Shown here piece by piece: positions 2,321-61,457 of a stretch of 64,000 nucleotides of DNA. Source of the DNA: Cyanidioschyzon merolae (taxonomy: Eukaryota); the NCBI GenBank assembly GCA_000091205.1, contig AP006487.2. One strand, written 5' to 3'. Each line of letters begins with the position of its first letter. Within the stretch, counting starts at the first letter, position 1. The notes below the pieces were generated by a model that saw only the letters and a list, made by a program, of their open reading frames with translations, searched no databases and was not told the origin of the DNA. The position numbers were made by a program, and so were the translations under genes.

Positions 2321-3129
2321 ACCGGGACCCAAACAGTACCGAAGAAATCCCGTTTGGGTAAGGTGAGAAAGCGCAAGTCGAGATCATCGGTGACCAAGTC
2401 ATAACCCGAAAATGGTTTTATTACGCGCTACCCGAAGCCTTTACATTCAAAAGTTACAAAGCGTCTCATATATTTCTTTCCTTTTCGGTCCTTGAAGCCT
2501 TCCGGGGGAATCATTCCAAACCATCAAGTATTGTTACAAAATTGTTGTCTCTGTTTCATAGCGAGTTTTTCCATACGCGTTTTCCAGTGATTTCGAAGAC
2601 TACTTTGTCTGCGTTATGCACAGACAAACCTGAGCTGGCCTACTCATAGCGAAACTACAGAATGTGCGGAAGAAAGCCGCCGTCCGGTCGCTCTGCAGCG
2701 AGTCGATGCACTAAGTTCGTCTCTTGTGTACATCGGCCCCAGTGCACATCTCTCTGAGTGGTATATCAAGACATGCCACATCGTTTCGCTCTTGTCAACG
2801 AAAATGAGGATGAGTATGCGTGGCAGAGAATGCGAAAGTGTGCAGTGACACAATCGCTGGGCTAAAGCATGCTGGCAATGAACGTGTTGTAAATCTTCTA
2901 TTTCTGCGAAAAATCATCGACGACATGCAAATCGAAGTTCACCGCGTGCATCGACGACACCGTCGTTGAGGCCGACTTCGAGAGTCACGCCGATACCTGC
3001 ATGCAGAGCGGCTCATCCGAGGAGCGCGTTTCCTCACACATGGAGGCGCGTGATAGTGCTCCAACTGCATCTAGTATGCCATCATTGAGGCTGACGGCGA
3101 CGGCGACGGCGACGGCGACAGCGAGGCTG

Positions 3130-3770
3130 ACATATGCACACGTATCACGTCCGCGTCCGCCAGCGCATCTACCACGTTCAGACGCATATGGTGGCTCCCC
3201 GAGTGCATCGACGACATCATCATCGACGGCGACGGCGAGGCCGACATGTGCACACGAAGCAGCTCATCCGCCACAAGTGCATCATCTAGGCTCAGGCGCA
3301 TGTGGTGGCTCCCCGAGTGCATCGACGACATCATCATCGACGGCGACGGCGAGGCCGACATGTGCACACGAAGCAGCTCATCCGCCACAAGTGCATCATC
3401 TAGGCTCAGGCGCATGTGATGGTTCCCCGAGTGCATCGACGACATCATCATCGACGGCGACGGCGAGGCCGACATGTGCACACGAAGCAGCTCATCCGCC
3501 ACAAGTGCATCGTCTAGGCTCAGGCGCATGTGGTGGCTCCCCGAGTGCATCGACGACATCATCATCGACGGCGACGGCGAGGCCGACATGTGCACACGAA
3601 GCAGCTCATCCGCCACAAGTGCATCGTCTAGGCTCAGGCGCATGTGGTGGCTCCCCGAGTGCATCGACGACATCATCATCGACGGCGACGGCGAGGCCGA
3701 CATGTGCACACGAAGCAGATCATCCGCCACAAGTGCATCGTCAAGGCTCAGACGTGAGCCATATAAACCA
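3130..3770. repeat. Tandem minisatellite, 114-bp unit x ~5 (38 codons per unit), flanked by (GCGACG)n-like simple repeats
   Basis: Unit starts at 3184, 3298, 3412, 3526 and 3640 (gcat[a/g]tggtggctccccgagtgcatcgacgacatcatcatcgacggcgacggcgaggccgacatgtgcacacgaagcagctcatccgccacaagtgcatc..). Both strands give long repeat-driven ORFs (3001..3945 +, 3071..4054 -). Confidence 0.9.
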
Positions 3771-5476
3771 TACGACGAAGAAGTTGTTGTCGTTGTGGTT
3801 GTTGGCGAGGCCGACGGCGACGGTGAAGGCGACGGTGAAGGTACTAAGATCGGATGCAAGACGGTGCGGTCCTGATTTATCCACAACGGCAGAGCAAGCA
3901 CGTTGCAACTGCAGAGAACAGTGCAGATCACGAACACACAGATGATATTCTTTGCAATCGACATTTTGCTGTGCTGTAACTTACGTGCCGTGTGCGCGCC
4001 CTTTGTAAACTCCAACCACTGTAGTATATATGTGCGTTGCACGCAGCCGCTCAATAATTACGCGGCGATCGCGAGGCATGCGTGCTGTCCCTCCCGTACA
4101 GCGAACAGCGCACTACGCCAGGATCCGCCACGTGTGGATCCGGAGGCTCGATGCGCGGGGGAATCCTGGTGAGTGAATCGCGGCGCGGGAGAAATCGCGG
4201 CGGACACGTGGCAGCGCTCTCCTCCACGAATGCAGCTGGCCGTGCAGCAGATGATCCAAGTGATCTTTTAAGTATTTAGACATAATGGTCAGCTTCATCA
4301 CTGTTCCCTGCGAAGGCCCTGCAACAATACGTAGATGGGGAGAACAAGCATATTTGCAGACGAGATCTCGTACGTCGAGTAGTCCCGAAAACTATAAAAG
4401 TCTTCGTATGGAGCATTTATGGCAATTGTAAAGGACCTTTCTGTGAGTGAGTGAGTGGGTTCAGACCTGCGTAACGCAGTACCACCTCTCGGGGAACAGG
4501 TAGGTTGCTTTCCAGTGAGTGGCGCATTGTGATGTAAAAGGCTGGAAGCTTCAGTTAGCGTGCGCGAAACTCAAGAGACTTCAGATCTGATAAAACACGA
4601 CTTTGCAAGGTAAACGACACGTATTTGCGCCTGAGAGAAAAGCCACCCGCATAATCATTGCGCTGAAAAATTGCCGATACACGACATATCTCGGGGGCAC
4701 TGCTCCCGGAACAGCACCTCCTGGAGGCCAAGACCGGTGGATTCTAGGGGCTGAGTCTGTCGAAAGCATTCCATACGAAGATGCGTTAGGCTTTAGATGC
4801 GCTGCGTCCAGGTAAGGCAGCCGCACCGCAACCTAGATGGCGGCAGAGATCGTTAGGATGCCTGGAGCATCCGATTGCAGCTTTGGGAATGCTTGAAGTG
4901 GACACTAGCACATGCGTGCCAGCGGCTAGGCCTCAAGACAGTGATTTGATGTTGCCATATGAAATAGTAATTTCCTATACTTCGAAAGAAAGCCGCTATC
5001 CTGCAAGTTTTACGCCTCATCTTCCACAGAAACGAACGCGTCTCTCCAATGGCTCAGTGAGTTAGTTCTTCTTCGCATTCTTTTAGAGTATAGGTCATTT
5101 TGCACGCCGCTCCGTTCGACAGCATGGAGCAACGTCTTGCGAGGAAGCAGCAACGCTGATTAACAGCCAACGTGACACGCAGGCATCGAGGCCATACCTC
5201 GGTCTCGACCGCCGCTAATGGTTTTTCTGTCGAATGGCTTCTCGTACCTGTATACTGGCCAGTTTCCGACGTTGCAGCACACAACGCCGCGGAACAGACG
5301 TCCGTCAAGGCGACTGATGCATGAATACGAAACAGTTGCTTCGCAATGTTGGGCAATGGCCGCGATGCAAAATCTTCCAGAAACAACTCAGCGGTAGTAA
5401 AGAAAAGGAAGATCCTGCGAGTCATAAGACGAACTGATTCTCTATAACCTCAAGCCTTCGTTTTGGCTGTTCGAAC

Positions 5477-6184: not shown

Positions 6185-6310
6185 ATGGTGGGCGCAGGAT
6201 AAAGCGTTCGGCTTTCAGTGAAGGTTCAGAGCCCGACGCTCGCACAAGCACTGTATAGCAGTTTTCTCTGCGTGTCGCGCCAGCTACGTCAGTGTATCAT
6301 CTCCAACCGA

Positions 6311-6910
6311 GTCACAATAAAACGGGAGGGGGCCTGTTCGATATCTCGAGCGAACACGCTCAAGTAGGGTTTCCTTCCCACTTGCGCCAAGACCAGTCCT
6401 CACAGGCTCTATCTGTGACTGCCTCTGTTTCCTCTCTCTTATCTCCTGCTGTAAACACGCGAGTCGTTCATGCCCCTCCAGCTCCGTAGTCAGCAGTCGA
6501 AGGGTGTTGATATTCGCGTTAATGTCCGGATCTGGGAGCTTCCCGCCGCTGACGACGCATTTCAAGCGCAGGCGGGAGGGACGATCTTCGCCTCACTTGT
6601 CTTCCGCAGCGTCTTTGCATGCATGCTTGACGCGCCCAGCGCAACGGTGGCAGTTGACTGCGGTCAGGTGCTCCCACATGACCACCATAACGCGTCCAGA
6701 TCAGAGCGCCGCATGTAACTTTTGAACGCTTGCTTCCTGGCTCGATACATGCGATAGACGGGTCCACGTGGGCTCCACTGCATGCCCTCATTCGTTGCGA
6801 TGCTCGGTGTCGTCCCAGAAGATCACGGGCATCTGCTGGGCGATCTCCTGGACGTGTACTCTGTTAGCTGTGCACGCAAGCCCACGCTGCTCCAGTCGAT
6901 ACGGGATTTG
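6311..6910. repeat. Dispersed repeat family R, copy 1 (600 bp)
   Basis: About 98.5% identical (roughly 9 mismatches by eye) to 11960..12559 in direct orientation. Both begin gtcacaataaaacgggaggggg and end ccagtcgatacgggatttg. Confidence 0.9.
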
Positions 6911-7299
6911 AGAAGCGCAACAATGTCCATGAATAATCAAGGGCCAAAAGAGTTATCCAAGGTAAACAACGAGCCGGGAAATTCCGATTCGTCTACGCTA
7001 CCTTTTTCCAATTCGTTGACGCACGCTCCACTGGAACCGTCCGCTGAGGTGAATCCGCCTCGAGTCCAAAACCCGTTCCGATGCAAACACAAGAAGCGGA
7101 AGCCTCTGGGTGTAAATTCAAGGGCTTCATCATACTACCGCGGAGTATGGTTGCGCCTACGGCTGTTAAGAAATGAGAATTTGTCTTTCGAATGGAATAG
7201 ATGAGATAACGTGGGAGCATCGGTAACCTTTGGCATGGGGCGTAGAAGAAGTCGTCAAGGGAACAAGCAGACAATATCCGTCGTCAGCCTAGCAGCGCG

Positions 7300-7500
7300 A
7301 ATTTCGGCGCTCATGAGTTGCCATGAAGCAGCAAGATCGAAACCTTTGAGACGTTCTATTTGAGAATGCTGTGCGTAATGAACGGGGAAGATCGACGGTC
7401 TGAGATTATCATGTGGAAAATGAAAACGGTTACTGCACGAACCCTTATTCAAGAGCGTCGCAAATCATCTTGACTCCGGTGACGAATCGAACTCTAGTGA
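7300..7500. repeat. Fragment related to the 3' part of repeat family X (compare 17650..17880)
   Basis: Shared blocks are aagatcgaaacctttg[a/c]ga and agagcgtcgc[a/g]aatcatctt..tcc[g/a]gtgacg. Confidence 0.6.
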
Positions 7501-8593
7501 CCACAATCTGAAGGAGTTACGAAGAAAGGACCACCCGAAATCCTCAAACGACTTACGCATCCATTACTTCTCATGACTGCGCTAGGAACATTAAGTCTGG
7601 AAATCGAAGCAGAAGGTCGGAAAATACTTCGAAAGGCATGAATAAGGCGGGCAGCTTGGTACACCATTTTAATCCTAAACTGGTGGTAAGCATTCAAAAT
7701 TGTAAATAGAACTGCACTTTTGAGTGCCATTTCTTGGAAATGGTACTGGAAGGAAGAACTGTTAATACATGAAGCTTCATCACAAGACTGCTTGAACAAC
7801 CTTTGCGGGCCGTTTCCGATGCTGAAAAGACGCGACGGTCCCGCTCTAAAGATAAACCAACGTCATGGATGGCGTGAAGTCGACCTTGAATCTATGGTCT
7901 CTGTGCGCGGTCGAGACGACCGTCTCGTGGCAATGCAGACTAGGTATCTATCCGAATTACATGTTTTCAAAAGAAAGAGCACGGAGCTTTCCATAGAATT
8001 TCCAGAACGCTTTTTTTGAAAAACTACAAAAAACCATTTTCCCAGCACGGGAGCATTTACAAACAGAGTCCGGGCTCGATTACGCTAGCCTGTTGACGCA
8101 CATCTGCACAAGTGAAACGCTGTAGCGTTTTCCATACACTGGTGCGTTATTTTGTAACACAAAGTCTTTTACTCACTGCTGACGCGATCATAAATTCTTG
8201 GAATTATATCACGTAAGGTCTGGCATCTCACAATACCAAAACATATTTAGTCTTGTCGCGCAGCTCCGCAGCATCAAGCTCGAGTCCGCATGGCGCTCTG
8301 GAATAAGTTCTCTTGAACGTTTGCTTGCTCTTGAAGTCAGTGCAACTCTTAGGCTGAAGCGCGTTCCAAGAGGGAATTTATGGTGGCTGCATACATGCAC
8401 GTAAAGGATCCTGATTCATGGCTCGATCAAGGGCATCATTATGCCCAGCGGGCATCACTGGCGCCACTGGCGGGAGCGACACGCTGATGCGTGTAGGTTG
8501 ATTTCGGAGCACGCATATGGCAGTCCATACGTGCGAGCGGCGCGCTGAGCTGCTCTTAATCTTCTCGCGTGTTGCTGGTATCGACGAAGACAC

Positions 8594-26231: not shown

Positions 26232-26455
26232 GGTTAATGGTTCGCAGTTGATCCGGTACTCGAATCTCTAGAGCATACTAAAAGCCAAAGCTATACTCAG
26301 TAAACTTATTATCTCTGTCTCCACAGTTTGTGACCGACCAAAGATTTCGTTAACCGTTGTCCAGCGGAGAGAAACGGCGGCCTCGCTGATTTGGCTTTCA
26401 ACTTGAATTTGTTTAACCTCAGCTGCGTTGAATCGAATGCATTTTCACAGTCCAT

Positions 26456-27818
26456 AGCAGGAAATCGAAAAGACTAGCCAATGAACCGAACAGATCGTAG
26501 AGGGATTACCTGCAGGAATATACTCGTGAAGGAACAGTGCATGGAGGTCTGCATTCCTCCTTCAGGTCAGTTATGCAACAGGACTCAGATGGCTGAGGAA
26601 CTCTGTAAGAACCAAGAATACGCGCTCCGCGCCAAAAGCCGATATTCTCGAAGACTGGATGCGGTCAATGGTAGAAAGCTACCCGTTGATCACCTGTTCT
26701 GGAAGGAAATAGCGACGATAGTAGCCACCATGGGCGACTCTGTTTCCCACCAGCTTGTTCGTGTGGTGCTGAAAACTCTAGGGTACAGTCGCTAAAGAGA
26801 GTCCGGGTCCACGCATGGGCATCTTCCACCGGCACCAAAATGGCAGCGTTCCTGGAACTCAGCGATCAGTATGACGTCCACGGACGTCGGTTTGTTTTTT
26901 TTCCAGTCGATGCGGCTTCCTTCGGACGAGGCGGTCGGTGCGTTTATGGGTATCCTCGGAGATGGCGTCTGTGCTGTGTACGAACGAACTTGTAGAGAAC
27001 GAGCATGTCATCAACTGTTCGAGCTGCAGTGGATTCTTTTGGCGGCCTCAGTTTCGCTCATAGACAAGACACATACAAGAGCAGCAACGAATTCGTCGAA
27101 TCACTGAAGACGGTTCTCTGACGTCTTCTGACAACCTTCCGTTGGACAACGTGACATTTCACGATTCTTCTTGCGTTCGAGTCTCTGCAGATTCTGTTGG
27201 AATAGAGCCGCTTTTCATTCCTCCGTACGCGCCGTAGTTTAACGCCATCGAAGAAGTCTTTCTTATCGTCGAACGTGGTGATCGCTCCACTGGGCGAACC
27301 GCTGAAGCGTTCAGCACACCGGGACGCCCGGGTACGCCTCGTCGCTCTTCCGCAAGTCCACCTCTGTCCGGAGACGTCCTTACGTCAAGGCGTAAAAAAG
27401 TGCGTCCATTTAAAGCAATAAAAAATCTGACGGCTGAGCTGGGGTGTACACTTCAGAGGGTCGAGACGGAGATAAGCCAGCGGAGCGCTTCGGCAACAGA
27501 TATGCACGGCGAGCTGACAGAGCACCGGGTAGCATAGAGGGCACGGGTTCGATCACTCCTTGCATGGCTGCGTTCCGTCAGAGGCGATAAACGCATGGGG
27601 TTCGTGAACCGAGAATGCAACGCCGCCAACAATATGAGGCGATGTGTGGCGCTGAAGACGAGACCCGAGGAGATGAAGCGATCCAGCTTCATGGGGCGTC
27701 CTCGAAGCCTCCAGGTATCCAAGGAGAGGATGAAACGCATGGCAGGGGGCCGGTCGAAAAGGCTGTGGTGCGTCTACCAGTTGGTATTCATTAACCCTAG
27801 GGTTCTAAAAGTTTTCGT
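26456..27818 (+). mobile_element. Composite element family T, copy A (1363 bp): Tc1/IS630-like DDE remnants plus TnpB-like RuvC-III tail
   Basis: Near-identical to 40969..42330. The DDE order is preserved: VFSQSMRLPSDE.., SLIDKTHTRAA (compare DNAPCHTA), LFIPPYAP*FNAIEEVF (with an in-frame stop). The tail carries MGFVNRECNAANNMRR. Confidence 0.55.
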
Positions 27819-27849: not shown

Positions 27850-28200
27850 ACTACCCTGCTCGATCTGTTGCGGGCTTTTTCTGTGACTGCTTCCTTGTTC
27901 CTCTATCTCCTAGCCCAGGCTTTAAATATGCAGATCTGTCATGTCCCTTCAGCTTCATGGTAAGCAGCCGAAGAATGTTGATGGTACCCTACGGGTTCGG
28001 ATTTTGCTGCTTCCCGCTGTCCTTGACGCACGTCACGCACATGCGGAGCTAACTATTCTGCATCGCATCCCATTTTCATATTCGTTGAATACAGTCTCGG
28101 TGTCCAGTTCGCCATGGTGACACCTGAATATTGTCAGGTGTTCCCGCACGTGTCGACCGTGACTATTCATCCCCAGGAGCCGTTCTGTGAACCTTCAACT
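27850..28200. repeat. Diverged member of repeat family R (~75% identity, by eye, to the 6400..6600 portion of R1)
   Basis: Blocks ttctgtgactgcttcc..ctctatctcc..cttcagcttcatggtaagcagccgaagaatgttgatgg align to R1 ctatctgtgactgcctctgtttcctctctcttatctcc..cctccagctccgtagtcagcagtcgaagggtgttgat. The indels are not multiples of 3. Confidence 0.55.
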
Positions 28201-28210
28201 CTTGATTCGT

Positions 28211-28740
28211 CGCTTGGTACAAGCCCCTGACCGGCGCAGAGGGCTTTCCTGAATGCATCCTGCAGTTTCCGTCCTTGGCGCTTTACACTGAAACTACGGG
28301 CGTCTTCTGGGCAAAACCCTCTGTGAGAATGCTGCTCGGTGCAAGCGCAAGCGCACGCTGTTCGATGCGACAGAGAATTTCCGGAACATGGTGATGTTCA
28401 TGATGGAACAATCACCAGAAGCAAAATCCGCGCCGGAAAACGAGTCGAAAAACCTCGATCAGTCTCTGCCGTCATTCTCAAAAGCAGTGGCGCGCTTCCG
28501 ACTGGAGGCGTTTGCTGAGATGACAAGAGTCCGAGTACGAGACCTTTTTCCATACGGGCCGAAGAGATGGAATCCTCTAGCAGTAGATCCCGTAAGGGAT
28601 ATTTTGCTGGTGCGGAATCCCGTTCCGCCCGCAGCCATCCATAGATGAGAAATAATGCTTCGAGCGGAATCGATCATCTGATCGGAAAGGATCAGTGAAC
28701 TTTCCGCAAGAGTCTGTAAACAAGTCGTCAAAGGATGATG
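28211..28740. repeat. Dispersed repeat family X, copy 2 (core only)
   Basis: Near-identical to 17097..17626. Confidence 0.85.
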
Positions 28741-29395: not shown

Positions 29396-29974
29396 GTGTA
29401 CTGGCAACATCGTTGCAGGCAAGCCGTTGCTCCAACACAGCAGCCGTGACCAGCGATACCCTTTTTGTGGATCGGTAGTGTGATGGCGCTGAACTCAGCT
29501 TGGGAACCGCTGCGCAGGAACAGTGCCTATGGCATGAAGCGCTTCTGGCGGAAATCTTCACCACGAGAAAGATGCTTCACGGTATGCGATGTTGCCATCG
29601 AGGCTCTTGCTCGAATAGAGCTATCTCCGACGGAACTGTCGCTACATCTCGAAATGCCTTTCTAGACGTCACACCGGGCGATTTTATGACGTATAGAATC
29701 GATCTACTTGAGATGATCTTTCCGGAAATAACACTGAGCAGTTCCAAGCTTTTTGGAGCAGATTCAATTTGAACAGATTCAGATGTCGCTCAGAACGATT
29801 CCTAGTCATCTGGAATCGATGCATCTGAGATCACTTTTTTTGGATGCCGTACGAAACAATTCGTAGAGGTACATCGAATGGGCCTGTCGCATCAGACACC
29901 ACTGAATGCCACGTACAGCAGCTGCCAATGGTAACACATGAACGCGCGCTGCCGACGCTTCGCCAGAGGCACCA

Positions 29975-30295
29975 GATATCGGTAATCATCCTGTCATCGC
30001 TGATCCTTGGTCCCTATCAAAGATCCATCAATCAAGAAAACTCGCGATAGTCCGCCGATATCGAGAGTCATCCTCAAACCACGGATCCTTGGTCCCTGTC
30101 AACGATCCATCAATCAAGAAAACTCGCGATAGTCCGCCGATATCGAGAGTCATCCTCAAACCACGGATCCTTGGTCCCTGTCAACGATCCATCAATCAAG
30201 GAAACTCGCGAAAGTCCGCCGATATCGATCGTCATCCTCTAAGCACGGATCCTTGGTCCCTGTCAACGATCCATCAATCAAGAAAACTCGCGATT
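29975..30295. repeat. Tandem repeat, 82-bp unit x ~3.7, followed by (GCC)8 at 30303..30327
   Basis: The unit gatccttggtccctgtcaacgatccatcaatcaagaaaactcgcgatagtccgccgatatcgagagtcatcctcaaaccacg recurs at 30002, 30084, 30165 and 30247. Confidence 0.85.
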
Positions 30296-40658: not shown

Positions 40659-40968
40659 CTATGTGTGCGGTGGCGGGCACCAGCTTTTGTCGCACGCGAG
40701 TTCCGTCACTGTTGACACAAGTCTTCGTTCCGCAAGAGACACTTCCGCTCTTTCGGTTCGTTCGCAGTCTTCTCGGCTACTTTTCTAAAGGCACAGGGCG
40801 AAATGCGCCCCGTCACCGAGCGCTGCTCAGCACTCGTCCAGAAAGTGGCACCACGAAAACGTCAAGTACAGAGATATCACCAAACGGTGTTGCGAGTAGC
40901 GTCCGCTGGATCCAGTGGAGGCGTTTTTAGTCTTTCAATTCAATTCCTTCGTCTGCGCTGCAGTGCGT

Positions 40969-42330
40969 AGCAGGAGATCGAAAAGACTAGCCAATGAACC
41001 GAACAGATCGTAGAGGGATTACCTGCAGGAATATACTCGTGAAGGAACAGTGCATGGAGGTCTGCATTCCTCCTTCAGGTCAGTTATGCAACAGGACTCA
41101 GATGGCTGAGGAACTCTGAAACAACCAAGAATACGCGCTCCGCGCCAAAAGCCGATATTCTCGAAGACTGGATGCGGTCAATGGTAGAAAACCACCCGTT
41201 GATCACCTGTTCTGGAAGGAAATAGCGACGATAGTAGCCACCATGGGCGACTCTGTTTCCCACCAGCTTGTTCGTGTGGTGCTGAAAACTCTAGGGTACA
41301 GTCGCTAAAGAGAGTCCGGGTCCACGCATGGCCATCTTCCACCGGCACCAAAATGGCAGCGTTCCTGGAACTCAGCGATCAGTATGACGTCCACGGACGT
41401 CGGTTTGTTTTTTCCCAGTCGATGCGGCTTCCTTCGGACGAGGCGGTCGGTGCGTTTATGGGTATCCTCGGAGATGGCGTCTGTGCTATGTACGAACGAA
41501 CTTTTAGAGAACGAGCATGTCATCAACTGTTCGAGCTGCAGTGGATTCTTTTGGCGGCCTCAGTTTCGCTCATAGACAAGACACATACAAGAGCAGCAAC
41601 GAATTCGTCGAATCACTGAAGACGGTTCTCTGACGTCTTCTGACAACCCTCTGTTGGACAACGTGACATTTCACGATTCTTCTTGCGTTCGAGTCTCTGC
41701 AGATTCTGTTGGAATAGAGCCGCTTTTCATTCCTCCGTACGCGCCGTAGTTTAACGCCATCGAAGAAGTCTTTCTTATCATCGAACGTGGTGATCGCTCC
41801 ACTGGGCGAACCGCTGAAGCGTTCAGCACACCGGGACGCCCGGGTACGCCTCGTCGCTCTTCCGCAAGTCCACCTCTGTCCGGAGACGTCCTTACCTCAA
41901 GGCGTAAAAAAGTGCGTCCATTTAAAGAAATAAAAAATCTGACGGCTGAGCTGGGGTGTACACTTCAGAGGGTCGAGACGGAGATAAGCCAGCGGAGCGC
42001 TTCGGCAACAGATATGCACGGCGAGCTGACAGAGCACCGGGTAGCATAGAGGGCACGGGTTCGATCACTCCTTGCATGGCTGCGTTCCGTCAGAGGCGAT
42101 AAACGCATGGGGTTCGTGAACCGAGAATGCAACGTCGCCAACAATATGAGGCGATGTGTGGCGCTGAAGACGAGACCCGAGGAGATGAAGCGATCCAGCT
42201 TCCTGGGGTGTCCTCGAAGCCTCCAGGTATCCAAGGAGAGGATGAAACGCATGGCAGGGGGCCGGTCGAAAAAGGCTGTGGTGCGTCTACCAGTTGGTAT
42301 TCATTCACCCTAGGGTTCTAAAAGTTTTCG
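40969..42330 (+). mobile_element. Composite element family T, copy B (1362 bp)
   Basis: Near-identical to 26456..27818, with the same DDE remnants and a MGFVNRECNVANNMRR tail. Confidence 0.55.
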
Positions 42331-43044
42331 TTCTACCGAGTGGAGCCAGCCATGCCCTCTACAGAATGCTCTCGGGATTTGTATGCTCTGCCGCCCAGTC
42401 TCGAGAGCTTATACCGGCCTCTGGTAGTCATTCGCAGACCTGAATCCCTACCGACCTTCGTTTCCTGGCAGCGTCGATCATGTATCTTTGATGAACTTGT
42501 CAAAGGCTGCGGCAGGCCGTCAGAATGCCGTAGGATTCCACTCGAGCAAGGTCGAAGGCATTCGCTCGCACGCATGCTTGCGAAGAAGCTGAACAGAGCT
42601 CGCCTTATCCAGACCACGTATACGTTATATCGATCAATACACTACGCGTCTTCCGTGCATATTGGCCATGCATCATGAAGTGTGCGACCATGCCTCTGGA
42701 GATAAAGCGCACAGGTTTGGTGCTCCCGAAGCCTGCCCCAGCAGAGGGCGCCCCCGGCACAGGCGGAGCTTTCTTTGAGCGCTGGGAACACTTGCACGCA
42801 GTAACGCAGCAAGCCTAGTGTTAACCGTGGATTACATCGAATCTGATCACGCAGTCTGTTTGCACTCTGTATCAGCTTTGTTTCTAAGGGAAGCGACGCG
42901 GGCGTCAGCGGCTCGCTACCGCTACGCAAGCGGGTGCCGCTCGTCCGCTTGCATTTCAACGATCCAGCAGCGCTGTGCTTGCGTTTCCGGTGTGGGAGAA
43001 GCTGGTGCAATCCTCTCTAGCAGACTGAGTTCGTCGCCGTTTGG

Positions 43045-47190: not shown

Positions 47191-48522
47191 AGAGAGGCAG
47201 TTGTTACCGCGTGCGCGCGCGCGCGGATGCTTCCACAGCGTCGAAGATAGAGGATTTTTAAATTGACATTGGCCAGCGTTTCCAGAGACTGTGCCCCATT
47301 TTTTTCTTTTCTTTCTCTGTCAGCGCGCAGTGAGGCATCCAACAAACCCCCTACTTCCATATTCCATAACATATACTTCTTCTCGAGTATACAGGTCGTT
47401 TCATACATACAATCGTGATGGTAGTGCCTGCAGAATGAACCCGCCATAGCGCCGGTAGCGCCGGTGCAGATGCATCACCTACATACAGAACGGCTTTTCC
47501 ATACCACTGAGGCCGACGGTAATAGCGGCACAACGCGCTTCGCAGCAGGCACTCATGGTGAGCGCGACATGCACCAGGTCGGTGAAAAAACTACCATCAA
47601 CTCAGAGGAATCACGTACTGGGGATGCGTTGCCTAGGCGCGAAACTACAGGGACCGTTGCCTCTTTCTGGGTCTCTGGTGGCAATGGCGCATCCGTGGGA
47701 GACCTGATCAGACTCATGGGATTCGCGCCATAAAAAATGCATAGATCGAGGCAGATTCCCGCCACGGGGCTTGTCTATTTACCGCACGTATCATCGAAGA
47801 AGCACGTTGCCGACGGACTTATGATAGCGCATCACAAGTCGCGCAAGATTGCTTTTCGGGGCCGTATCGCTACGCTGTCGGGCGTATTCAGCAGATCCCA
47901 CCAGTTCTGGAAGCACGGTCAGTCGTTTGCTGTACCGTACTGCGCCCGGCGAAAAGACGCGCGCGGGTGTACCCGCTTGCCATGCACAACGCGAGATCGA
48001 GATATCTAACCAGAACCAGACGGATGTGCAAAAACAGCGGGACATCGGGCAAAAGTCTTCCACTGTTCCGCGAGAGCTCCCGTCTTTGTCAGCTTTTGTT
48101 TGCAAGTCTCTGGGGGTTCAGCGACCCTGCGAGACCCGAACCTTCTGAAGCCTCCACGTGAAGCCTGGTCCGATACTTGTTGCAATCACGTGCATCATCT
48201 CGACACTCACGATCAATAAGCTCAATAGTCTGCGTCGGGGTCACAGAACTCGTCGACTCTACATAAGAAAACGGAAACGCTGGCATGCAGTCCGTTTCAA
48301 CACTCCCGCGACCGATGCAGCCCCACAGGGCGGCTCGTCTGCAACGTCGCCCGCTCCACTGACGACGAGCTCGACGTCAGCCACTTGAGTTCAGGTGTTG
48401 GTACTTGGTGGCCTCTGCGGCCGTTTATGCCTCAACGGAAGCCAAAAGAAACTTGATGACACTGAGTACAGCTTCTTGAATAGGGGTTTTGCTGTTGACT
48501 GTTTGCCTCGCGTCCGAGCTCG

Positions 48523-54369: not shown

Positions 54370-54523
54370 AGCAGGCGCCGGCCGTCAACGGCAATCTGCA
54401 GCGATGCATGTCGCTCTGTTTGTGACCGTGACATCATGGATGATGCCTGCCCGCCCCCGACCCGCTCCTCCGAGACCTCGATCCGATTGCCACGTCGCCT
54501 CGGCGATCGGAACATCCCAGCAA

Positions 54524-56140
54524 CAACATCGAAAACTATCGCCGGTTAATATCGAGCACTTTATGAAGCGCACCTTTTGGACGTTGTACGCGCAGTAGCC
54601 TCACATTTACTAGCACATGCGCTTGGAAACTGATTGAATCGATACCCGGGTTTTCGATGGATGCAAATGAGGAGCCGGTGGCGGTATCGCTCGAGTTGGT
54701 AGCGACTTCGGCAGAGATGTCGCTACGAGGGCGAGCGGCACTCCAGATGGTCCAAGCTCATCGTGATATGCTGGACCTCGAACCGGACGGGCGCCATATC
54801 CAAAGGATGGTTGAAACGAGATGCCTGCCTTCATTGCATCTTTCGCTACTTTATGTTCCTGAACAGGGCTCTCCAGAGAAAAACCTGCTTGCCTCCTTGT
54901 ATCCGTGCATCCAGGCCCCTGAGAAAAACCCATTCAATGCGGCACCGGTATGCCGGATTACGGCGCAGGCAACCATCGTAGATATTTGTGTTATGTACTG
55001 CATCGTGTCTGGAGTGAGCTACGGCTGGTCTCTGCGAGCAGGCATGGGACATGCGAGCATCATCTCGAAGAGCATTGGCGGAGCTCGCTCGACGATACGC
55101 ATCCGCTGGTAGAAAGTATAGAAGAGTCAATAGGGACGACAGAGAACGACAGAGTATCAAACCGCATGCAATTCGTGCAATCTAAGCCCAAGTCGAGCAG
55201 AAGGACTCATTTTCAATCGTTCAAGATAGATGATATGAAAGGATTTGTGATGGGTATCGATCCGGGGTCGACAAGAATATCGCGATGGTCGCCATGCCTC
55301 TGTATGATGAGAACGGCATCAGATTTCTGAAAGGCAAGCAGATGACACTGCTCATTTTGTGCAGGGCGTAATATCTTCGCGAGTCATAACGAACAGACGA
55401 AAGAAGCCATACCAACAAATGGAATGATAGCGTCAGAACTGCTTTTGTACGCGCTGAGGAATGTGATGAGCAGAGAAGCATGCTTCGTGCGTCTCAGATA
55501 GAGAGTACACAGATGCGTAACTGGCTCCCGCAGGCATCTTTAGCTGGAGTCCATGAGATGGCGCTGAAATCGCAAACGATTCCTGTTGTACAAGCGCAAG
55601 AAGCACGCATTCTCTAGGTCCTTCAGTGAGTTGGAACAGCGAGTGAAAGACAATGCGCGTCATTCGGTAATAGAGTATGAAGTTGGACATTCCAGCATGC
55701 GCACTGGCTGCACATCTATTCAATCGACAAGAGCGTTCACCAAGAGCAGAAACCTATGCGGGACGATTCCCACTGGAGGCGTTCAGGACAACGCGCATGC
55801 GCATCATGAGTACGACTGCACACTGAAACAGATCGAGAAGAAAAGCGTGGAACAGAGCGCGATACACAATATCATGCAAGGCGAGCTGATGAAATGCCAG
55901 ACACCGAGACATCCTCAGGTGAGAGGCGTACTATTGTGTGATGCCACCAGCGATCATCCATACGAGTACTTTCTGCATCGAGACTTGAATGCCTCAATCA
56001 ACAATCGGGAATGTGTGTGTTGCTGCCAGAGCGTCTATCAACTTTGTTTCCTGCATATTTTCCACGAAATTGATTCGTGCTCGGTGTAGACATTTCGATG
56101 AAACGTTGGAGTCTTCCGAGGCAAGACAAAAACTGTGACA
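54524..56140 (+). mobile_element. TnpB/Fanzor-like element, copy 2: conserved 355-bp leader plus inactivated RuvC gene
   Basis: The leader 54524..54878 is about 96% identical to 19564..19916. ORF 54950..55330 carries RuvC-I FKIDDMKGFVMGIDPGSTRISRW (Fanzor-type GIDPG). ORF 55586..56089 carries ..LEQRVKDNARHSVIEYEV..SSMRTGCTS.. followed by RuvC-III HPYEYFLHRDLNASINNRE. In-frame stops separate the pieces. Confidence 0.55.
54950..56089 (+). pseudogene. Inactivated TnpB/Fanzor-like RuvC nuclease gene (copy 2)
   Basis: RuvC-I and RuvC-III segments are in the same frame but interrupted by stops at 55328 and 55343. No clean RuvC-II could be read. About 75% identical by eye at nucleotide level to copy 1 over the homologous part. 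Confidence 0.5.
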
Positions 56141-58079: not shown

Positions 58080-60620
58080 TTACTTGCGGTACGCCATGCG
58101 CCGCCAGAGCGCAGCTGCGTCGCTCGGAACATATGGTGCTCCAGGGCGTCGTCCGTGCCGCCCTAGTGTCGACGGGGCGTACATTGCCTGCCGAGCCGCC
58201 TGAATACCTTCGTGAATGGTCTGCACTAAACCCGAGGCCAACAGTATGATTGCAGCGTTCAACACAATGGTTTCGCGGAGCAATACCAGGTGCTCTGAAG
58301 ATAAACTGCTGGTCTCTGCTCCGACAGCGTTGTCGTCGATACCCGTATTCGTGAGTACCTCCTCGAGGAGTCGTGCATTCTCCACGGCATTGGCACCAAT
58401 CACAGCAGCTAAATCGCCCTTGCTGTACATCTGGTAGCGATGCGGTTGAAGAGGTATCTCGGCGACCTGGGCGATCTCCTCGCCGTCTGCATTGGGGCCG
58501 CGGTAGCAAACCTCGCGCACAGAATTCTGTCCCCAGGGTAGAAGACAGCCCAGATGCTGCTCTCCCGTTGGAGTGTCCTCGTTTGATGCCTCTGGCACCA
58601 GACAAGTGAAGAGCCAGGCTCTTACTGGACGGAAGAACGCGACTGCGTCCGTCAGCGCCTCCAGTTCTGCAGTTCCACTGGGAGCATGGAGACCCGGCGC
58701 AGTCACCAAACGATCAAGGTCGTAGGCATTCAAGAGCGGAGCCACTAAATCTCCCAAAAGCGGTGCTGGCGATGTTGCCACATCTTCCGCGGTAGCCGTT
58801 TCATTCAGTAGGAGTCGAATATCGCGCTTCGCGAGACCTATCGGTGATCGATAAAGCGCTATTCGCAATCGATCAAAAGTTGCACAGGACTCGGCTAGAG
58901 TCGGATAGGGGTTCAGCCCAACAGCAAGCAGGAAAGGGGCATAAGTCGTGCTCAACGTGCTCCGCCAGTCGTCGATGATACAGACGCGGGCACCTGCTGA
59001 TGTGGCAACGACGGCAGCGCCCAACATAATATGGGGAATCATGGCGTTGGAGAAGAGCAGCCCTACTATGGTGGATCTGGAAAGCGGCCCTGAAGGCTGT
59101 GGTGTCCGTGGATGAGCACTTATGTAGGCGGAAAGCTTTGGCAAGTGCGGAAGCAGCAACTGCGCGAGCGCTGCTCGTGCAGAGCCGTGCAAGACGCCAT
59201 CTGCAGCCATCGCGAGAATGCACAGCTTCCGGGCAACTGCGATGGACTCTGCTCGCGACAGGGCCGGAAGCAAGTGCTTCTGTTCATTGGACGATGCCGG
59301 GGCATACGCGCCTGACTTTCCTGCATACTGATATTGTTCGTCAGCGCTCAGCAGTGTAAACAGGCAGCGGGTATCTTCAATACTCAACGGCAACTGGCGA
59401 ATGATAGCCTCGTAGAGATCGGAGACGTCTGCGAACCAGCGGCGCGGCACGGGAGCCGTCTTGTTCGCTATTCGGTCGCTGTGCTGCCTCTGCAACAGTG
59501 CTTCCAGGTGGAAGCGCAGGCGAGCCCACACCATACCCAGAGGCGATGTCAGCGTTCGCGCAGCTCGCTGGTACGCCGGCTTCTTCGCTGGTGGACGCAA
59601 CGGCTGCGGAAACGCTCGCCATCGCTCTGCAAGCTCCTCTCGACCAAGGAAGACGCTGTCTAGTCGCTGTTGTAACTTCCAGAAAAGTCCAAGTATGATG
59701 AGGGCGATGGCACTGATCCAGAATGCCGGTACCGGGAACCGTCCGCCCGGACGGATTGTTTCCAACCCGGGGAGTCGCAGCGGCTCAACGGTAACCATAC
59801 GCCGCTCTCCTTGCCAGGCTCGTCCAGCATGCTCCATTCGTGCCTCATCTGCACGGTCGAGGAAACGTAAAGAGTATCGAACAAGATGACGGGATCTCAT
59901 CCACAGGTGTCTGCATGCGTAGGGCGTTACCCGACGTGCATCAGCAAGGATTTGCGTTGATGACTCGCGACCCCGTCCAAAGCGGTTGCGGGTGTATGCA
60001 TGTTGGCCAGGAAGACGCGTAGGTGTGTTGCTGATCCAGCGCACCAATGGAGCAGAAAACTGAAGTACCGGGAAACCCCATCGAGCCCGCAACGCCCGCG
60101 CCATCCCCAAGGAGCGACCTGTCTCCACATCCGAACGCTTCGGGAAACCATGACACCTATCCAGACTAGTAGACAGAAGCGTTGACGTACGCGCACCCGT
60201 CTCGCTTCTGGAGAGCATTGCACAGTGTTGGCACATGGAACAGGCGTTCGACCGGGGCCTCACGCCGGGCGGCATAACAGGATGCCTGCGGCTCGCAACG
60301 ATACCACTATCCGTTTCGGTGGCTGCTCCTGTATCCAAAAAGGCGCTCCAGGCGACAGGACGGTTCTTGGTCCATCGGTTTGGTATCAAGCTTCCAGTTG
60401 TCGGCCTCACGGTAGTGATTTCCTCTTGTTGACGCTTTGATACTTGCTGCTGCACCATGAAAGCTCGCTGCCGACAGCCACACAATGCAGAGGCCTCCTC
60501 AGCGCAGACAAACAATACCCTCCGACAGAAAGCAAGGTCGTTACTAGCACTACGAATGGTAAACAGTAGTAGTTGTTGTTGTTGCTCTCTTGACTGGGTT
60601 TGAAAAAGCTTTTGCGTCAC
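58080..60620 (-). CDS. Hypothetical protein (846 aa) with C-terminal glycosyltransferase-family-3 (TrpD/YbiB-like) fold
   Basis: The C-terminal block GDLAAVIGANAVENARLLEEVLTNTG...EHLVLLRETIVLNAAIILLASGLVQTIHEGIQAARQAM resembles the C-terminus of anthranilate phosphoribosyltransferase-like proteins (..vLlNAAaaL.vaG....l.eG...A.e.i.sG.A). The N-terminal 400 aa are unrecognised. Confidence 0.35.
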   Translation of the reverse strand: MTQKLFQTQSREQQQQLLLFTIRSASNDLAFCRRVLFVCAEEASALCGCRQRAFMVQQQVSKRQQEEITTVRPTTGSLIPNRWTKNRPVAWSAFLDTGAATETDSGIVASRRHPVMPPGVRPRSNACSMCQHCAMLSRSETGARTSTLLSTSLDRCHGFPKRSDVETGRSLGMARALRARWGFPVLQFSAPLVRWISNTPTRLPGQHAYTRNRFGRGRESSTQILADARRVTPYACRHLWMRSRHLVRYSLRFLDRADEARMEHAGRAWQGERRMVTVEPLRLPGLETIRPGGRFPVPAFWISAIALIILGLFWKLQQRLDSVFLGREELAERWRAFPQPLRPPAKKPAYQRAARTLTSPLGMVWARLRFHLEALLQRQHSDRIANKTAPVPRRWFADVSDLYEAIIRQLPLSIEDTRCLFTLLSADEQYQYAGKSGAYAPASSNEQKHLLPALSRAESIAVARKLCILAMAADGVLHGSARAALAQLLLPHLPKLSAYISAHPRTPQPSGPLSRSTIVGLLFSNAMIPHIMLGAAVVATSAGARVCIIDDWRSTLSTTYAPFLLAVGLNPYPTLAESCATFDRLRIALYRSPIGLAKRDIRLLLNETATAEDVATSPAPLLGDLVAPLLNAYDLDRLVTAPGLHAPSGTAELEALTDAVAFFRPVRAWLFTCLVPEASNEDTPTGEQHLGCLLPWGQNSVREVCYRGPNADGEEIAQVAEIPLQPHRYQMYSKGDLAAVIGANAVENARLLEEVLTNTGIDDNAVGAETSSLSSEHLVLLRETIVLNAAIILLASGLVQTIHEGIQAARQAMYAPSTLGRHGRRPGAPYVPSDAAALWRRMAYRK

Positions 60621-60679
60621 TCAGGTACCGCTGCGACGGTCTCGAAGCGACGTGCTCTAGAGAAAGCCCTGCAGGAGCC

Positions 60680-61250
60680 ACACGACTCGAAAAAAGAGCA
60701 AGTCGTTACGATGAAGCGTTACCTGCGTAACGACTAGAAACAGCTGCTTCTGAGCGACACGACTCGAATAAAGGGCTAGTCGTTACGATGAAGCGTTACC
60801 TGCGTAACGACTAGAAACAGCTGCTTCTGAGCGACACGACTCGAATAAAGGGCTAGTCGTTACGATGAAGCGTTACCTGCGTAACGACTAGAAACAGCTG
60901 CTTCTGAGCGACACGACTCGAATAAAGAGCAAGTCGTTACGATGAAGCGTTACCTGCGTAACGACTAGAAACAGCTGCTTCTGAGCGACACGACTCGAAT
61001 AAAGGGCTAGTCGTTACGATGAAGCGTTACCTGTGTAACGACTAGAAACAGCTGCTTCTGAGCGACACGACTCGAATAAAGGGCTAGTCGTTACGATGAA
61101 GCGTTACCTGTGTAACGACTAGAAACAGCTGCTTCTGAGCGACACGACTCGAATAAAGGGCTAGTCGTTACGATGAAGCGTTACCTGCGTAACGACTAGA
61201 AACAGCTGCTTCTGAGCGACACGACTCGAATAAAGGGCTAGTCGTTACGA
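60680..61250. repeat. Tandem array, 77-bp unit x ~7.4, each unit containing a perfect 12-bp inverted repeat (ctagtcgttacg ..15 nt.. cgtaacgactag)
   Basis: Unit starts at 60680, 60758, 60835, 60912, 60989, 61066, 61143 and 61220. The units are nearly identical; the first is slightly diverged (aaaaagagcaagtcg). Confidence 0.9.
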
Positions 61251-61457
61251 AGAATCGCCTCCCAAAAGGAGCTTCCCCGGGAACGCTTTACCGTGTAAGG
61301 CTTCGAACGGCTGAGAACGAGCCCAGGCGATACGCGTTACCGCCACCACTTGCATGTGTGCTCCGCGTGGCATCTCCAGTCGATGCTTCTGCACTGCTGT
61401 TCCAAAGTCGTTACACATGACGGTTTTTTCTGGGGGTACTTGTTGCCTTCCTAACAT

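Follow-up and report, generated by a model that had tools for sequence, protein, structure and literature searches.

Fanzor1 genes associate with DDE transposases of the Mariner and hAT types (PMC10711439), and Mariner-Fanzor1 composites have been published as PUl-1 and PUl-2 from Pythium ultimum and as PGv-1 (Bao & Jurka 2013, Fig. 3, PMC3627910). The same paper (Mobile DNA 4:12) described a single Fanzor1 family in Cyanidioschyzon merolae, CMe-1A, whose 3169-bp consensus encodes a 734-aa Fanzor1 protein named CMe-1 and which is present in ~150 copies, each ~80% identical to the consensus. CMe-1A has no terminal inverted repeats (TIRs), its describers assigned it neither target-site duplications (TSDs) nor a class, and its first 635 bp are another repeat, TE-N2_CMe (PMC3627910). 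Here we analyze Family T, a set of repeats in a 64,000-nt window of chromosome 5 of C. merolae 10D (contig AP006487.2; exact protein matches place it in the CME0xx gene range), using as probes the CMe-1A consensus and the CMe-1 protein taken from the supplement of PMC3627910. Working from the letters of the window alone, an original prediction had described three copies, referred to here as A, B and C, as remnants of an IS630/Tc1-type DDE transposase joined to a TnpB/Fanzor-like RuvC tail. Both parts were verified by profile or homology searches, and the copies of Family T are very probably dead members of a C. merolae lineage of DNA transposons with two genes, a DDE gene followed by a Fanzor1 gene. 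Backbone and tail alike are those of the published CMe-1 family, a link that had gone unrecognized.

Copy A occupies positions 26396..27818, copy B 40931..42331 and copy C, an older lineage, 13326..14833, all on the + strand. By self-BLAST, A and B were 98.4% identical over 1372 nt with 22 differences (26448-27818 vs 40961-42331), and C was ~70% identical to both (13326/13387-14281); a three-way MAFFT alignment carried the homology of C on to 14833. The near-identity of A and B, the divergence of C and the common 3′ end had all been noticed before and were borne out by these measurements. All three copies end in TTTTCGT, past which their flanks have no mutual resemblance; the end of copy B falls at 42331, previously given as 42330. 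Homology between A and C begins at 26395-26396 in A and at 13326 in C, with a leader alignment score that was reached by 0 of 1000 shuffles. Because the homology of A with both C and the CMe-1A consensus runs ~60 nt to the left of 26456, the agcagga..atcgaaa sequence formerly taken for the 5′ terminus is internal, and the whole element of copy A is redefined here by its leader homology with C, its TTTTCGT end and its unrelated flanks. The left end of copy B was placed by self-BLAST and leader alignments. None of the copies contains an intact open reading frame (ORF). A fourth copy, D, lies on the orthologous metagenome contig L007 (11426-12900, reverse strand of L007), ~0.76-1.47 kb to the left of window position 1, and its 5′ part is cut by the end of that contig. 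The known copies, four in number, all share the + strand and lie within ~45 kb, spaced 13-15.6 kb apart and separated by unique genes.

The transposase part of Family T was found to be larger and better ordered than remnants. In copy A it spans 26481..27396 (+), in B 40994-41908 and in C ~13412-14340. A single reading frame of copy A matched Pfam DDE_3 (PF13358; gathering score 28.6 bits) with 33.8 bits and E=3.6e-8, and the ORF stitched across frames matched it with 44.2 bits and E=2.2e-11. The stitched ORF of copy A has ~310-320 codons with at least 4 frameshifts and 3 in-frame stops. It also matched the NCBIfam IS630 family transposase model NF033545 at profile positions 23-272 of 299 (E=1.3e-17); its score of 64 bits falls short of the 100-bit naming cutoff, as one would expect of a pseudogene. 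Aligned with the intact transposase of a metagenomic element, L022, it was 29% identical (E=2e-21, aa 19-270), and the helix-turn-helix (HTH) motif, both catalytic aspartates (D1 and D2) and the glutamate (E) were in register, the paired T/L022 motifs being AFLLQVSYATGLRW/ADILCVSKSSVQRW in the HTH, PVDAASF/SIDETGF, LDNVTFH/LDNASIH and FNAIEE/FNPIEK. In copy A the HTH motif AFLLQVSYATGLRWLRN is located at 26551-26601, D1 (PVDAASF) at 26903-26923 and D2 (LDNVTFH) at 27142-27162, and the E in FNAIEE follows D2 at a spacing of ~34 residues in the reconstruction.

Matches to the DDE_3 and IS630 profiles, an N-terminal HTH and a D..D..(34-35)..E triad are the marks of IS630/Tc1-mariner transposases as a protein family, and the reconstructed ORF has all of them. 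As far as sequence can tell, a complete transposase gene of the IS630/Tc1-mariner type, now dead, makes up the DDE segment: a decayed ORF of ~310 codons where only remnants had been supposed. The profile searches recommended with that earlier reading thus supported the assignment, and the motifs quoted for it fared unevenly: LFIPPYAP*FNAIEEVF (27220-27261 in copy A) is in the correct frame, but PSDE and SLIDKTHTRAA are out of frame and do not correspond to D1 and D2. The likeness to IS630/Tc1-mariner extends to the HTH, the DDE_3 fold signature and the catalytic D, D and E of the reconstruction, whereas T has neither of the hallmarks of the elements themselves, TIRs and a TA target-site duplication. 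Family T therefore is Tc1/mariner-like at the level of the protein family and not at that of the element, and it shares the backbone of CMe-1A without sharing its termini. No TIRs bound the DDE segment alone, as those of a nested mariner would. A word-indexed search of a 5.8-billion-protein index with the DDE ORF returned zero close intact relatives, and a sequence search of PDB with it returned zero matches.

On both sides of the transposase pseudogene lies CMe-1 sequence. The 65-nt leader of copy A (26396..26460, +) corresponds in local alignment to nt 793-859 of the published consensus and ends in TATAGCAG. It is also present in C (13326-13386), and it is rearranged or deleted in B (40931-40960, from leader alignments), in which the block of 98.4% identity with A begins at 40961. 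The TA dinucleotide that precedes A and B in their former extents, and that had been taken as a possible target-site signal, is part of this conserved leader and is thus neither an element end nor a TSD. Directly after the DDE ORF, the spacer of copy A (27397..27425, +) corresponds to CMe-1A nt 868-897, the 5′ untranslated region (UTR) right before the Fanzor ATG, with a score that 0 of 300 shuffles reached; the spacer of B lies at 41909-41937, and C has a stretch corresponding to nt 896-969. Leader and spacer together place the DDE ORF at one defined site in the CMe-1 5′ UTR, a segment of ~935 bp between CMe-1A nt 859 and 868 in all copies.

The collinearity of T with CMe-1A is partial. It comprises the leader (nt 793-859), the spacer (nt 868-897, to 969+ and hence into the Fanzor N-terminus in C and D) and the Fanzor C-terminus (from nt 2738 or 2840 to ~3107), at 70-84% nucleotide identity. 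TIRs are absent from both. In contrast to CMe-1A, T carries the ~935-bp DDE_3 ORF. Missing from T, in turn, are the first 790 bp of CMe-1A with its TE-N2_CMe part, the 3′ hairpin and the greater share of the Fanzor ORF, and T is known from ~4 copies as against ~150. In the fetched CMe-1A copies, a DDE neighbor was absent.

The RuvC-bearing tail of copy A (27436..27799, +) is a C-terminal remnant of the CMe-1 type of Fanzor1, from aa 612 to ~734, as determined by tblastn and blastn. The published CMe-1 protein aligned with 27436-27762 over aa 612-721 (48% over 110 aa), and its aa 612-728 gave E values of ~1e-25 to 1e-27 for A and B, the tail of B starting at 41948. In copy C the match covered 14539-14793, equivalent to aa 643-728 (52%, E ~3e-17 to 3e-19), and at the nucleotide level the T tail was 74% identical to CMe-1A nt 2738-2971 (blastn). 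The peptides quoted in the original prediction are present. The tail of copy A contains a RuvC-II region, ELGCTLQRVETE, a decayed Zn-finger region and the RuvC-III motif FVNRECNAANNMRR (27601-27642) with a D-to-E replacement, and it is interrupted by one in-frame stop. Copy C carries IPSFAPRLSPIEGVF at 14139-14183, within its DDE pseudogene, and SRDFNAAINIRRRAV at 14617-14661; its RuvC-III retains RDFNAAINI, which reads RECNAANN in A and B. On this homology the tail is a genuine C-terminal part of a Fanzor1 gene, CMe-1 aa 612-734. Pfam left it unmatched, which is uninformative because intact CMe-1 itself reaches only E=0.5 on PF07282. The T tail was 45-55% identical in amino acids to any of 43 CMe-1-like proteins in a large database, which are themselves 80-92% identical to the consensus across the tail region. 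This divergence marks T as a side lineage that is old or decayed, and not as a recent derivative of CMe-1A. From 27800 to 27818, copy A has a T-specific 3′ end (..TTCTAAAAGTTTTCGT) without the CMe-1A 3′ hairpin, as judged from copy alignments and hairpin comparison. A continuation of CMe-1A homology past TTTTCGT into the start of that hairpin (GCCACTG in A, TCCACTG in D) was considered and rejected, the alignment scores being at chance level in all copies.

Between 84 and 92% of the Fanzor ORF is deleted in Family T; what was lost includes the upstream D (RuvC-I) together with the DEF-TS part, and an intact Fanzor ORF with a complete RuvC triad is absent from every copy. In A and B the sequence jumps after the spacer to CMe-1A nt 2738, a deletion of nt 898-2737. 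Copy C retains the Fanzor start codon (ATG at 14365) and ~55 N-terminal codons (MDIEVKDRRGLMSP…, aa 1 to ~55), which are joined to aa ~644 (…AV followed by AQRAPVRGLL; aa ~644-728 at 14542-14793). Copy D has the same junction (…ETVV followed by AQRARVRGLL), so that the deletion in C and D removed Fanzor aa ~56-643. A and B retain aa 612-643, which are gone in C and D, whereas C and D retain aa 1-55, which are gone in A and B. Because the two deletions are not nested, the common ancestor of the copies had the DDE gene together with a full-length Fanzor1 gene. This gives substance to the earlier suggestion that these are deletion derivatives of an element combining a transposase with Fanzor1.

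Intact elements of this kind, which a search for longer members had been proposed to find, were identified on three metagenomic contigs. L022 (ENA ERZ27280271) carries an intact 395-aa HTH+DDE_3 transposase (Pfam E=2.7e-23) abutting an intact 662-aa Fanzor, P0090, in ~3.5 kb bounded by 41-nt TIRs. L021 (JGI 3300007033) has a DDE gene called as a fragment, an intact 698-aa Fanzor (P0089) and 32-nt TIRs, and L020 (JGI 3300008963) has an uncalled DDE gene, an intact 702-aa Fanzor (P0088) and 28-nt TIRs. Their Fanzors, 31-43% identical to CMe-1, are the next nearest intact ones and stand directly downstream of DDE_3 genes, in the order and spacing seen in T, making these the closest intact relatives found. 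They differ from T in being intact, in their 28-41-nt TIRs and in their 3′ UTRs of 190-260 bp vs ~20 bp. PUl-1 and PUl-2 likewise have a Mariner/IS630-type transposase upstream of Fanzor1 and measure 3.6-3.8 kb, compared with an inferred ~3.3 kb for the ancestor of T, but they have 24-33-bp TIRs, TA duplications and intact ORFs, none of which is present in T. The PUl-1 transposase resembled the T DDE ORF weakly (31% over 55 aa). In a separate observation on L021, a gene flanking the element (2-376) encodes a Peptidase_S74 (endosialidase chaperone) domain (E=1e-14). This domain is typical of phage tail-fiber proteins, and the L021 element may sit in a viral genome.

The window contains a second such arrangement. 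At 18320..18850 (+) lies another, older IS630/Tc1-like DDE_3 pseudogene, detected by tblastn with the T DDE ORF (35% over 75 aa, E=3e-6) and by Pfam DDE_3 (E=6e-6 stitched, 2.6e-4 in a single frame). It is not a member of Family T, and it stands directly 5′ of F1, a near-full-length Fanzor1 pseudogene of a different lineage (19166..21130, +; HRDLNAS at 21002) that tblastn matched to P0088 aa 57-702 (E=2e-40) and to CMe-1 (E=2e-16). The whole of 18320-21130, at 24-36% aa identity to CMe-1 and P0088, looks like a decayed ~3-kb element with the same gene order; the original prediction had noted nothing of it but the Fanzor tail at 20990. F2 (54660..56044, +; HRDLNAS at 55976), identified by self-comparison and tblastn, is a 5′-truncated relative of F1. 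The kinship of the T tail with these Fanzor-like loci at ~21.0 and ~56.0 kb had been proposed earlier and was upheld. The second tandem at 18.3-21.1 kb and the three metagenomic elements indicate that the arrangement of a DDE gene followed by Fanzor1 is recurrent in this clade, which bears out the main idea of the original prediction and the check that it had suggested.

The ancestor of Family T would have been an element of ~3.3 kb, composed of a short leader, an IS630/Tc1-mariner-type DDE gene, a ~40-bp spacer, a CMe-1-type Fanzor1 gene encoding an RNA-guided TnpB-like nuclease, and a short 3′ end. What the data show directly is this architecture, the two deletions and the decay of the genes to pseudogenes; the roles in mobilization are drawn by analogy. 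If PUl-1/2, L020-22 and the systems in PMC10711439 are a guide, the DDE enzyme would have been the cut-and-paste transposase and the Fanzor an accessory RNA-guided nuclease. Two independent internal deletions, one in the A/B and one in the C/D lineage, would have taken most of the Fanzor ORF, after which both lineages would have decayed by frameshifts and stops. With neither TIRs nor an intact ORF, the present T copies are immobile relics.

Several results weigh against this reconstruction. When the left 150 nt were compared with the reverse-complemented right 150 nt, the scores for A, B and C were at chance, as the original prediction of no recognizable TIRs had implied, although the same procedure gave a score of 41 for the positive control L022 against a shuffle maximum of 27. 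The flanks at the redefined ends, inspected for TA duplications as the original prediction had advised, showed none (GG left and GC right of A, AG and TC for B, TT and TT for C). Similarity of the T ends to the TIRs of the relatives reached only p ~0.05. That candidate for a vestigial resemblance to L020-22 involved the right end of A alone and was not reproduced in C or in CMe-1A, and we make no claim from it. The ends of T also differ from those of CMe-1A: T starts at about CMe-1A nt 790 and stops ~20 nt past the Fanzor stop codon, and genuine CMe-1A copies run from consensus nt 6 or 648 to ~3145-3152. Since TIRs and TA duplications are missing and the ends are hardly like the TIRs of the relatives, any DDE-mediated mobilization of present-day T is conjectural. 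In addition, an intact or full-length member of the T lineage was not found, either in the word-indexed protein search with the DDE ORF or in a metagenome DNA scan for a 22-base motif that A, B and C have in common, a scan whose coverage did not include the 10D genome itself. The scan returned 13 contigs, all of them orthologues of this region from strains ~99% identical to 10D, plus chimeric assemblies, and revealed no further T copies. In the A/B tail, the 68 nt at the start are closer to CMe-1A (84%) than the remainder is, and the junction could represent recombination with a CMe-1A copy rather than a simple deletion. Finally, set against CMe-1A, the presence of the DDE segment could just as well be due to a bare ORF that was inserted secondarily, the polarity of the change being a matter of parsimony with distant relatives (31-43% Fanzor identity).

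It is conceivable, if rather unlikely, that a single decayed copy spread locally to the four clustered within ~45 kb by segmental duplication or repair-associated copying, and that the copies never transposed as such. This would account for the common strand and the 13-15.6 kb spacing of all four copies and for the lack of TIRs. It would also fit the ~15-20 nt 3′ of the Fanzor stop that are common to all copies, and the motif scan, which revealed no copy elsewhere but is blind to copies without the 22-base motif and to the 10D genome. The pattern of identity also points to active recombination between copies. Three of the 22 A-B differences fall in the first 16 nt of the block, and the leaders of A and B are diverged or rearranged; in the 3′ part of the DDE gene, copy D matches A at 97% for the first 116 nt that are available and at ~70% thereafter. 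However, in every copy the flanks are unrelated up to sharp ends and unique genes lie in between, which is atypical of segmental duplication, and local hopping of DNA transposons yields equal clustering. The cluster of + strand copies is thus compatible with old local hopping as well as with local duplication. The high identity of A to B (98%), and that of A to D in the patch they share (97%), are themselves most likely the product of ectopic gene conversion or local duplication among clustered copies of the same orientation, not of recent transposition, because mosaic identity among old copies makes the near-identity of A and B poor evidence of a recent move. A comparable patch links F1 and F2, in which 19561-19916 and 54522-54878 are 95.5% identical over 357 bp and the remaining parts of the loci ~65-70%; this suggests gene conversion between dispersed dead repeats. 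Such homogenization in C. merolae is a caution against equating near-identity with recent transposition.

The secondary insertion mentioned above can be stated more fully: a Fanzor-only CMe-1 element, moved by some other mechanism, would have gained a bare IS630/Tc1-like ORF in its 5′ UTR by nested insertion or gene capture, and that transposase would never have been its mobilizer. We judge this to be somewhat more doubtful still than local spread. Against the 150-copy CMe-1A consensus, the DDE segment does appear as a clean ~935-bp insertion between nt 859 and 868 with neither TIRs nor a TSD of its own, TIRs are missing from T and CMe-1A alike (PMC3627910 for the latter), and the fetched CMe-1A copies show no DDE neighbor. 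On the other hand, the same gene order and tight spacing occur in three intact TIR-bounded relatives, at the independent F1 locus and in the published PUl-1/2. The distance from the left end of T to the DDE ATG (85 bp) matches the ~50-110 bp from TIR to ATG in the relatives, and it would take a coincidence for a bare ORF to land at precisely this point before the Fanzor ATG and in matching orientation.

The guide RNA of Fanzor1 is encoded at the right end (PMC10711439), and both independent deletions spare the last 90-120 codons and the 3′ end, the scaffold-coding region in TnpB/Fanzor systems (PMC10711439). It is nevertheless highly improbable that the Fanzor 3′ part was kept as a working right-end guide RNA (ωRNA/reRNA) or cis-acting end, with T as a non-autonomous element served in trans by the CMe-1 Fanzor: the CMe-1A consensus 3′ region folded somewhat better than shuffles (z = -2.5) but the T tail did not (z = -1.3), an alignment of six sequences gave no support for covariation (covariation term +0.64), the CMe-1A 3′ hairpin is absent from T, Rfam had zero matches in the whole window, and the tail, ~74% identical to CMe-1A, is evolving like a pseudogene.

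With the DDE-Fanzor1 transposon preferred as the source of Family T, the most parsimonious view of CMe-1A is that it derives from the same backbone by loss of the transposase gene. A wider proposal, which we put forward only tentatively and consider less probable than its negation, is that T and F1 are fossil autonomous partners of the C. merolae Fanzor elements, and that CMe-1A descends from an IS630/Tc1-mariner-type DDE-Fanzor1 element minus its transposase and TIRs, still with ~150 copies. Fanzor1 in Mariner-type transposons and the CMe-1 family were both already published, and in kind the present finding is unsurprising. New are a DDE-bearing CMe-1 lineage, a second DDE-Fanzor relic in the same genome, intact TIR-bounded relatives and the implied origin of CMe-1A. 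Family T provides the first sequence-relic evidence that the red-alga CMe-1 once stood directly behind an IS630/Tc1-type transposase gene, and it offers a classification and an origin for CMe-1A, ‘class unknown’ to its describers. It also raises the question of the route by which a Fanzor element with neither transposase nor TIRs arrived at ~150 copies. If CMe-1A did lose both, then Fanzor-only elements could be maintained or multiply in the absence of a canonical cognate transposase; in this alga, which is proficient in recombination, Fanzor-triggered homology-directed copying would be one such route.

Some minor observations concern CMe-1 itself. In three metagenome contigs (L017:5221-5376, L018:4540-4621 and L019:4426-4654), 2-4 tandem copies of a ~75-77-nt segment (consensus nt ~2117-2195) form an in-frame expansion within intact CMe-1 Fanzor ORFs, with a copy number that varies. 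Many of the CMe-1 proteins P0049-P0087 had a weak match to Pfam PF26935 (DUF8286), a model that appears to cover part of this Fanzor1 lineage. Fragments ~76% identical to CMe-1A nt 65-252, within its TE-N2_CMe part, occur in the window at 14870-15059 (-) and 47350-47519 (+), the former lying inverted 37 bp past the 3′ end of copy C.

Other repeats of the window are separate from these elements. An unrelated family is present at 6310-7549, 11959-13203, 16946-17908 and 28062-28740, and its 3′ end is fixed, falling at 7549, 13203 and 17908. T copy C and F1, both DDE-Fanzor elements, each have a copy of it just 5′ of them, and a fragment of it is found 244 bp 3′ of copy A. The similarities involved (12837-13203 with 17545-17908 and 7324-7549; 16946-17626 with 28062-28740) prompted the question whether these repeats are parts of the T and F1 elements. 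This was rejected, since they make up a separate family, end at a fixed 3′ position of their own and are without homology to CMe-1A. Tandem arrays with periods of 114, 82 and 77 nt occupy 2981-3850, 29960-30294 and 60598-61334, respectively, and the 114-nt array lies within long ORFs of both strands (3001-3945 on the + strand and 3071-4054 on the - strand).

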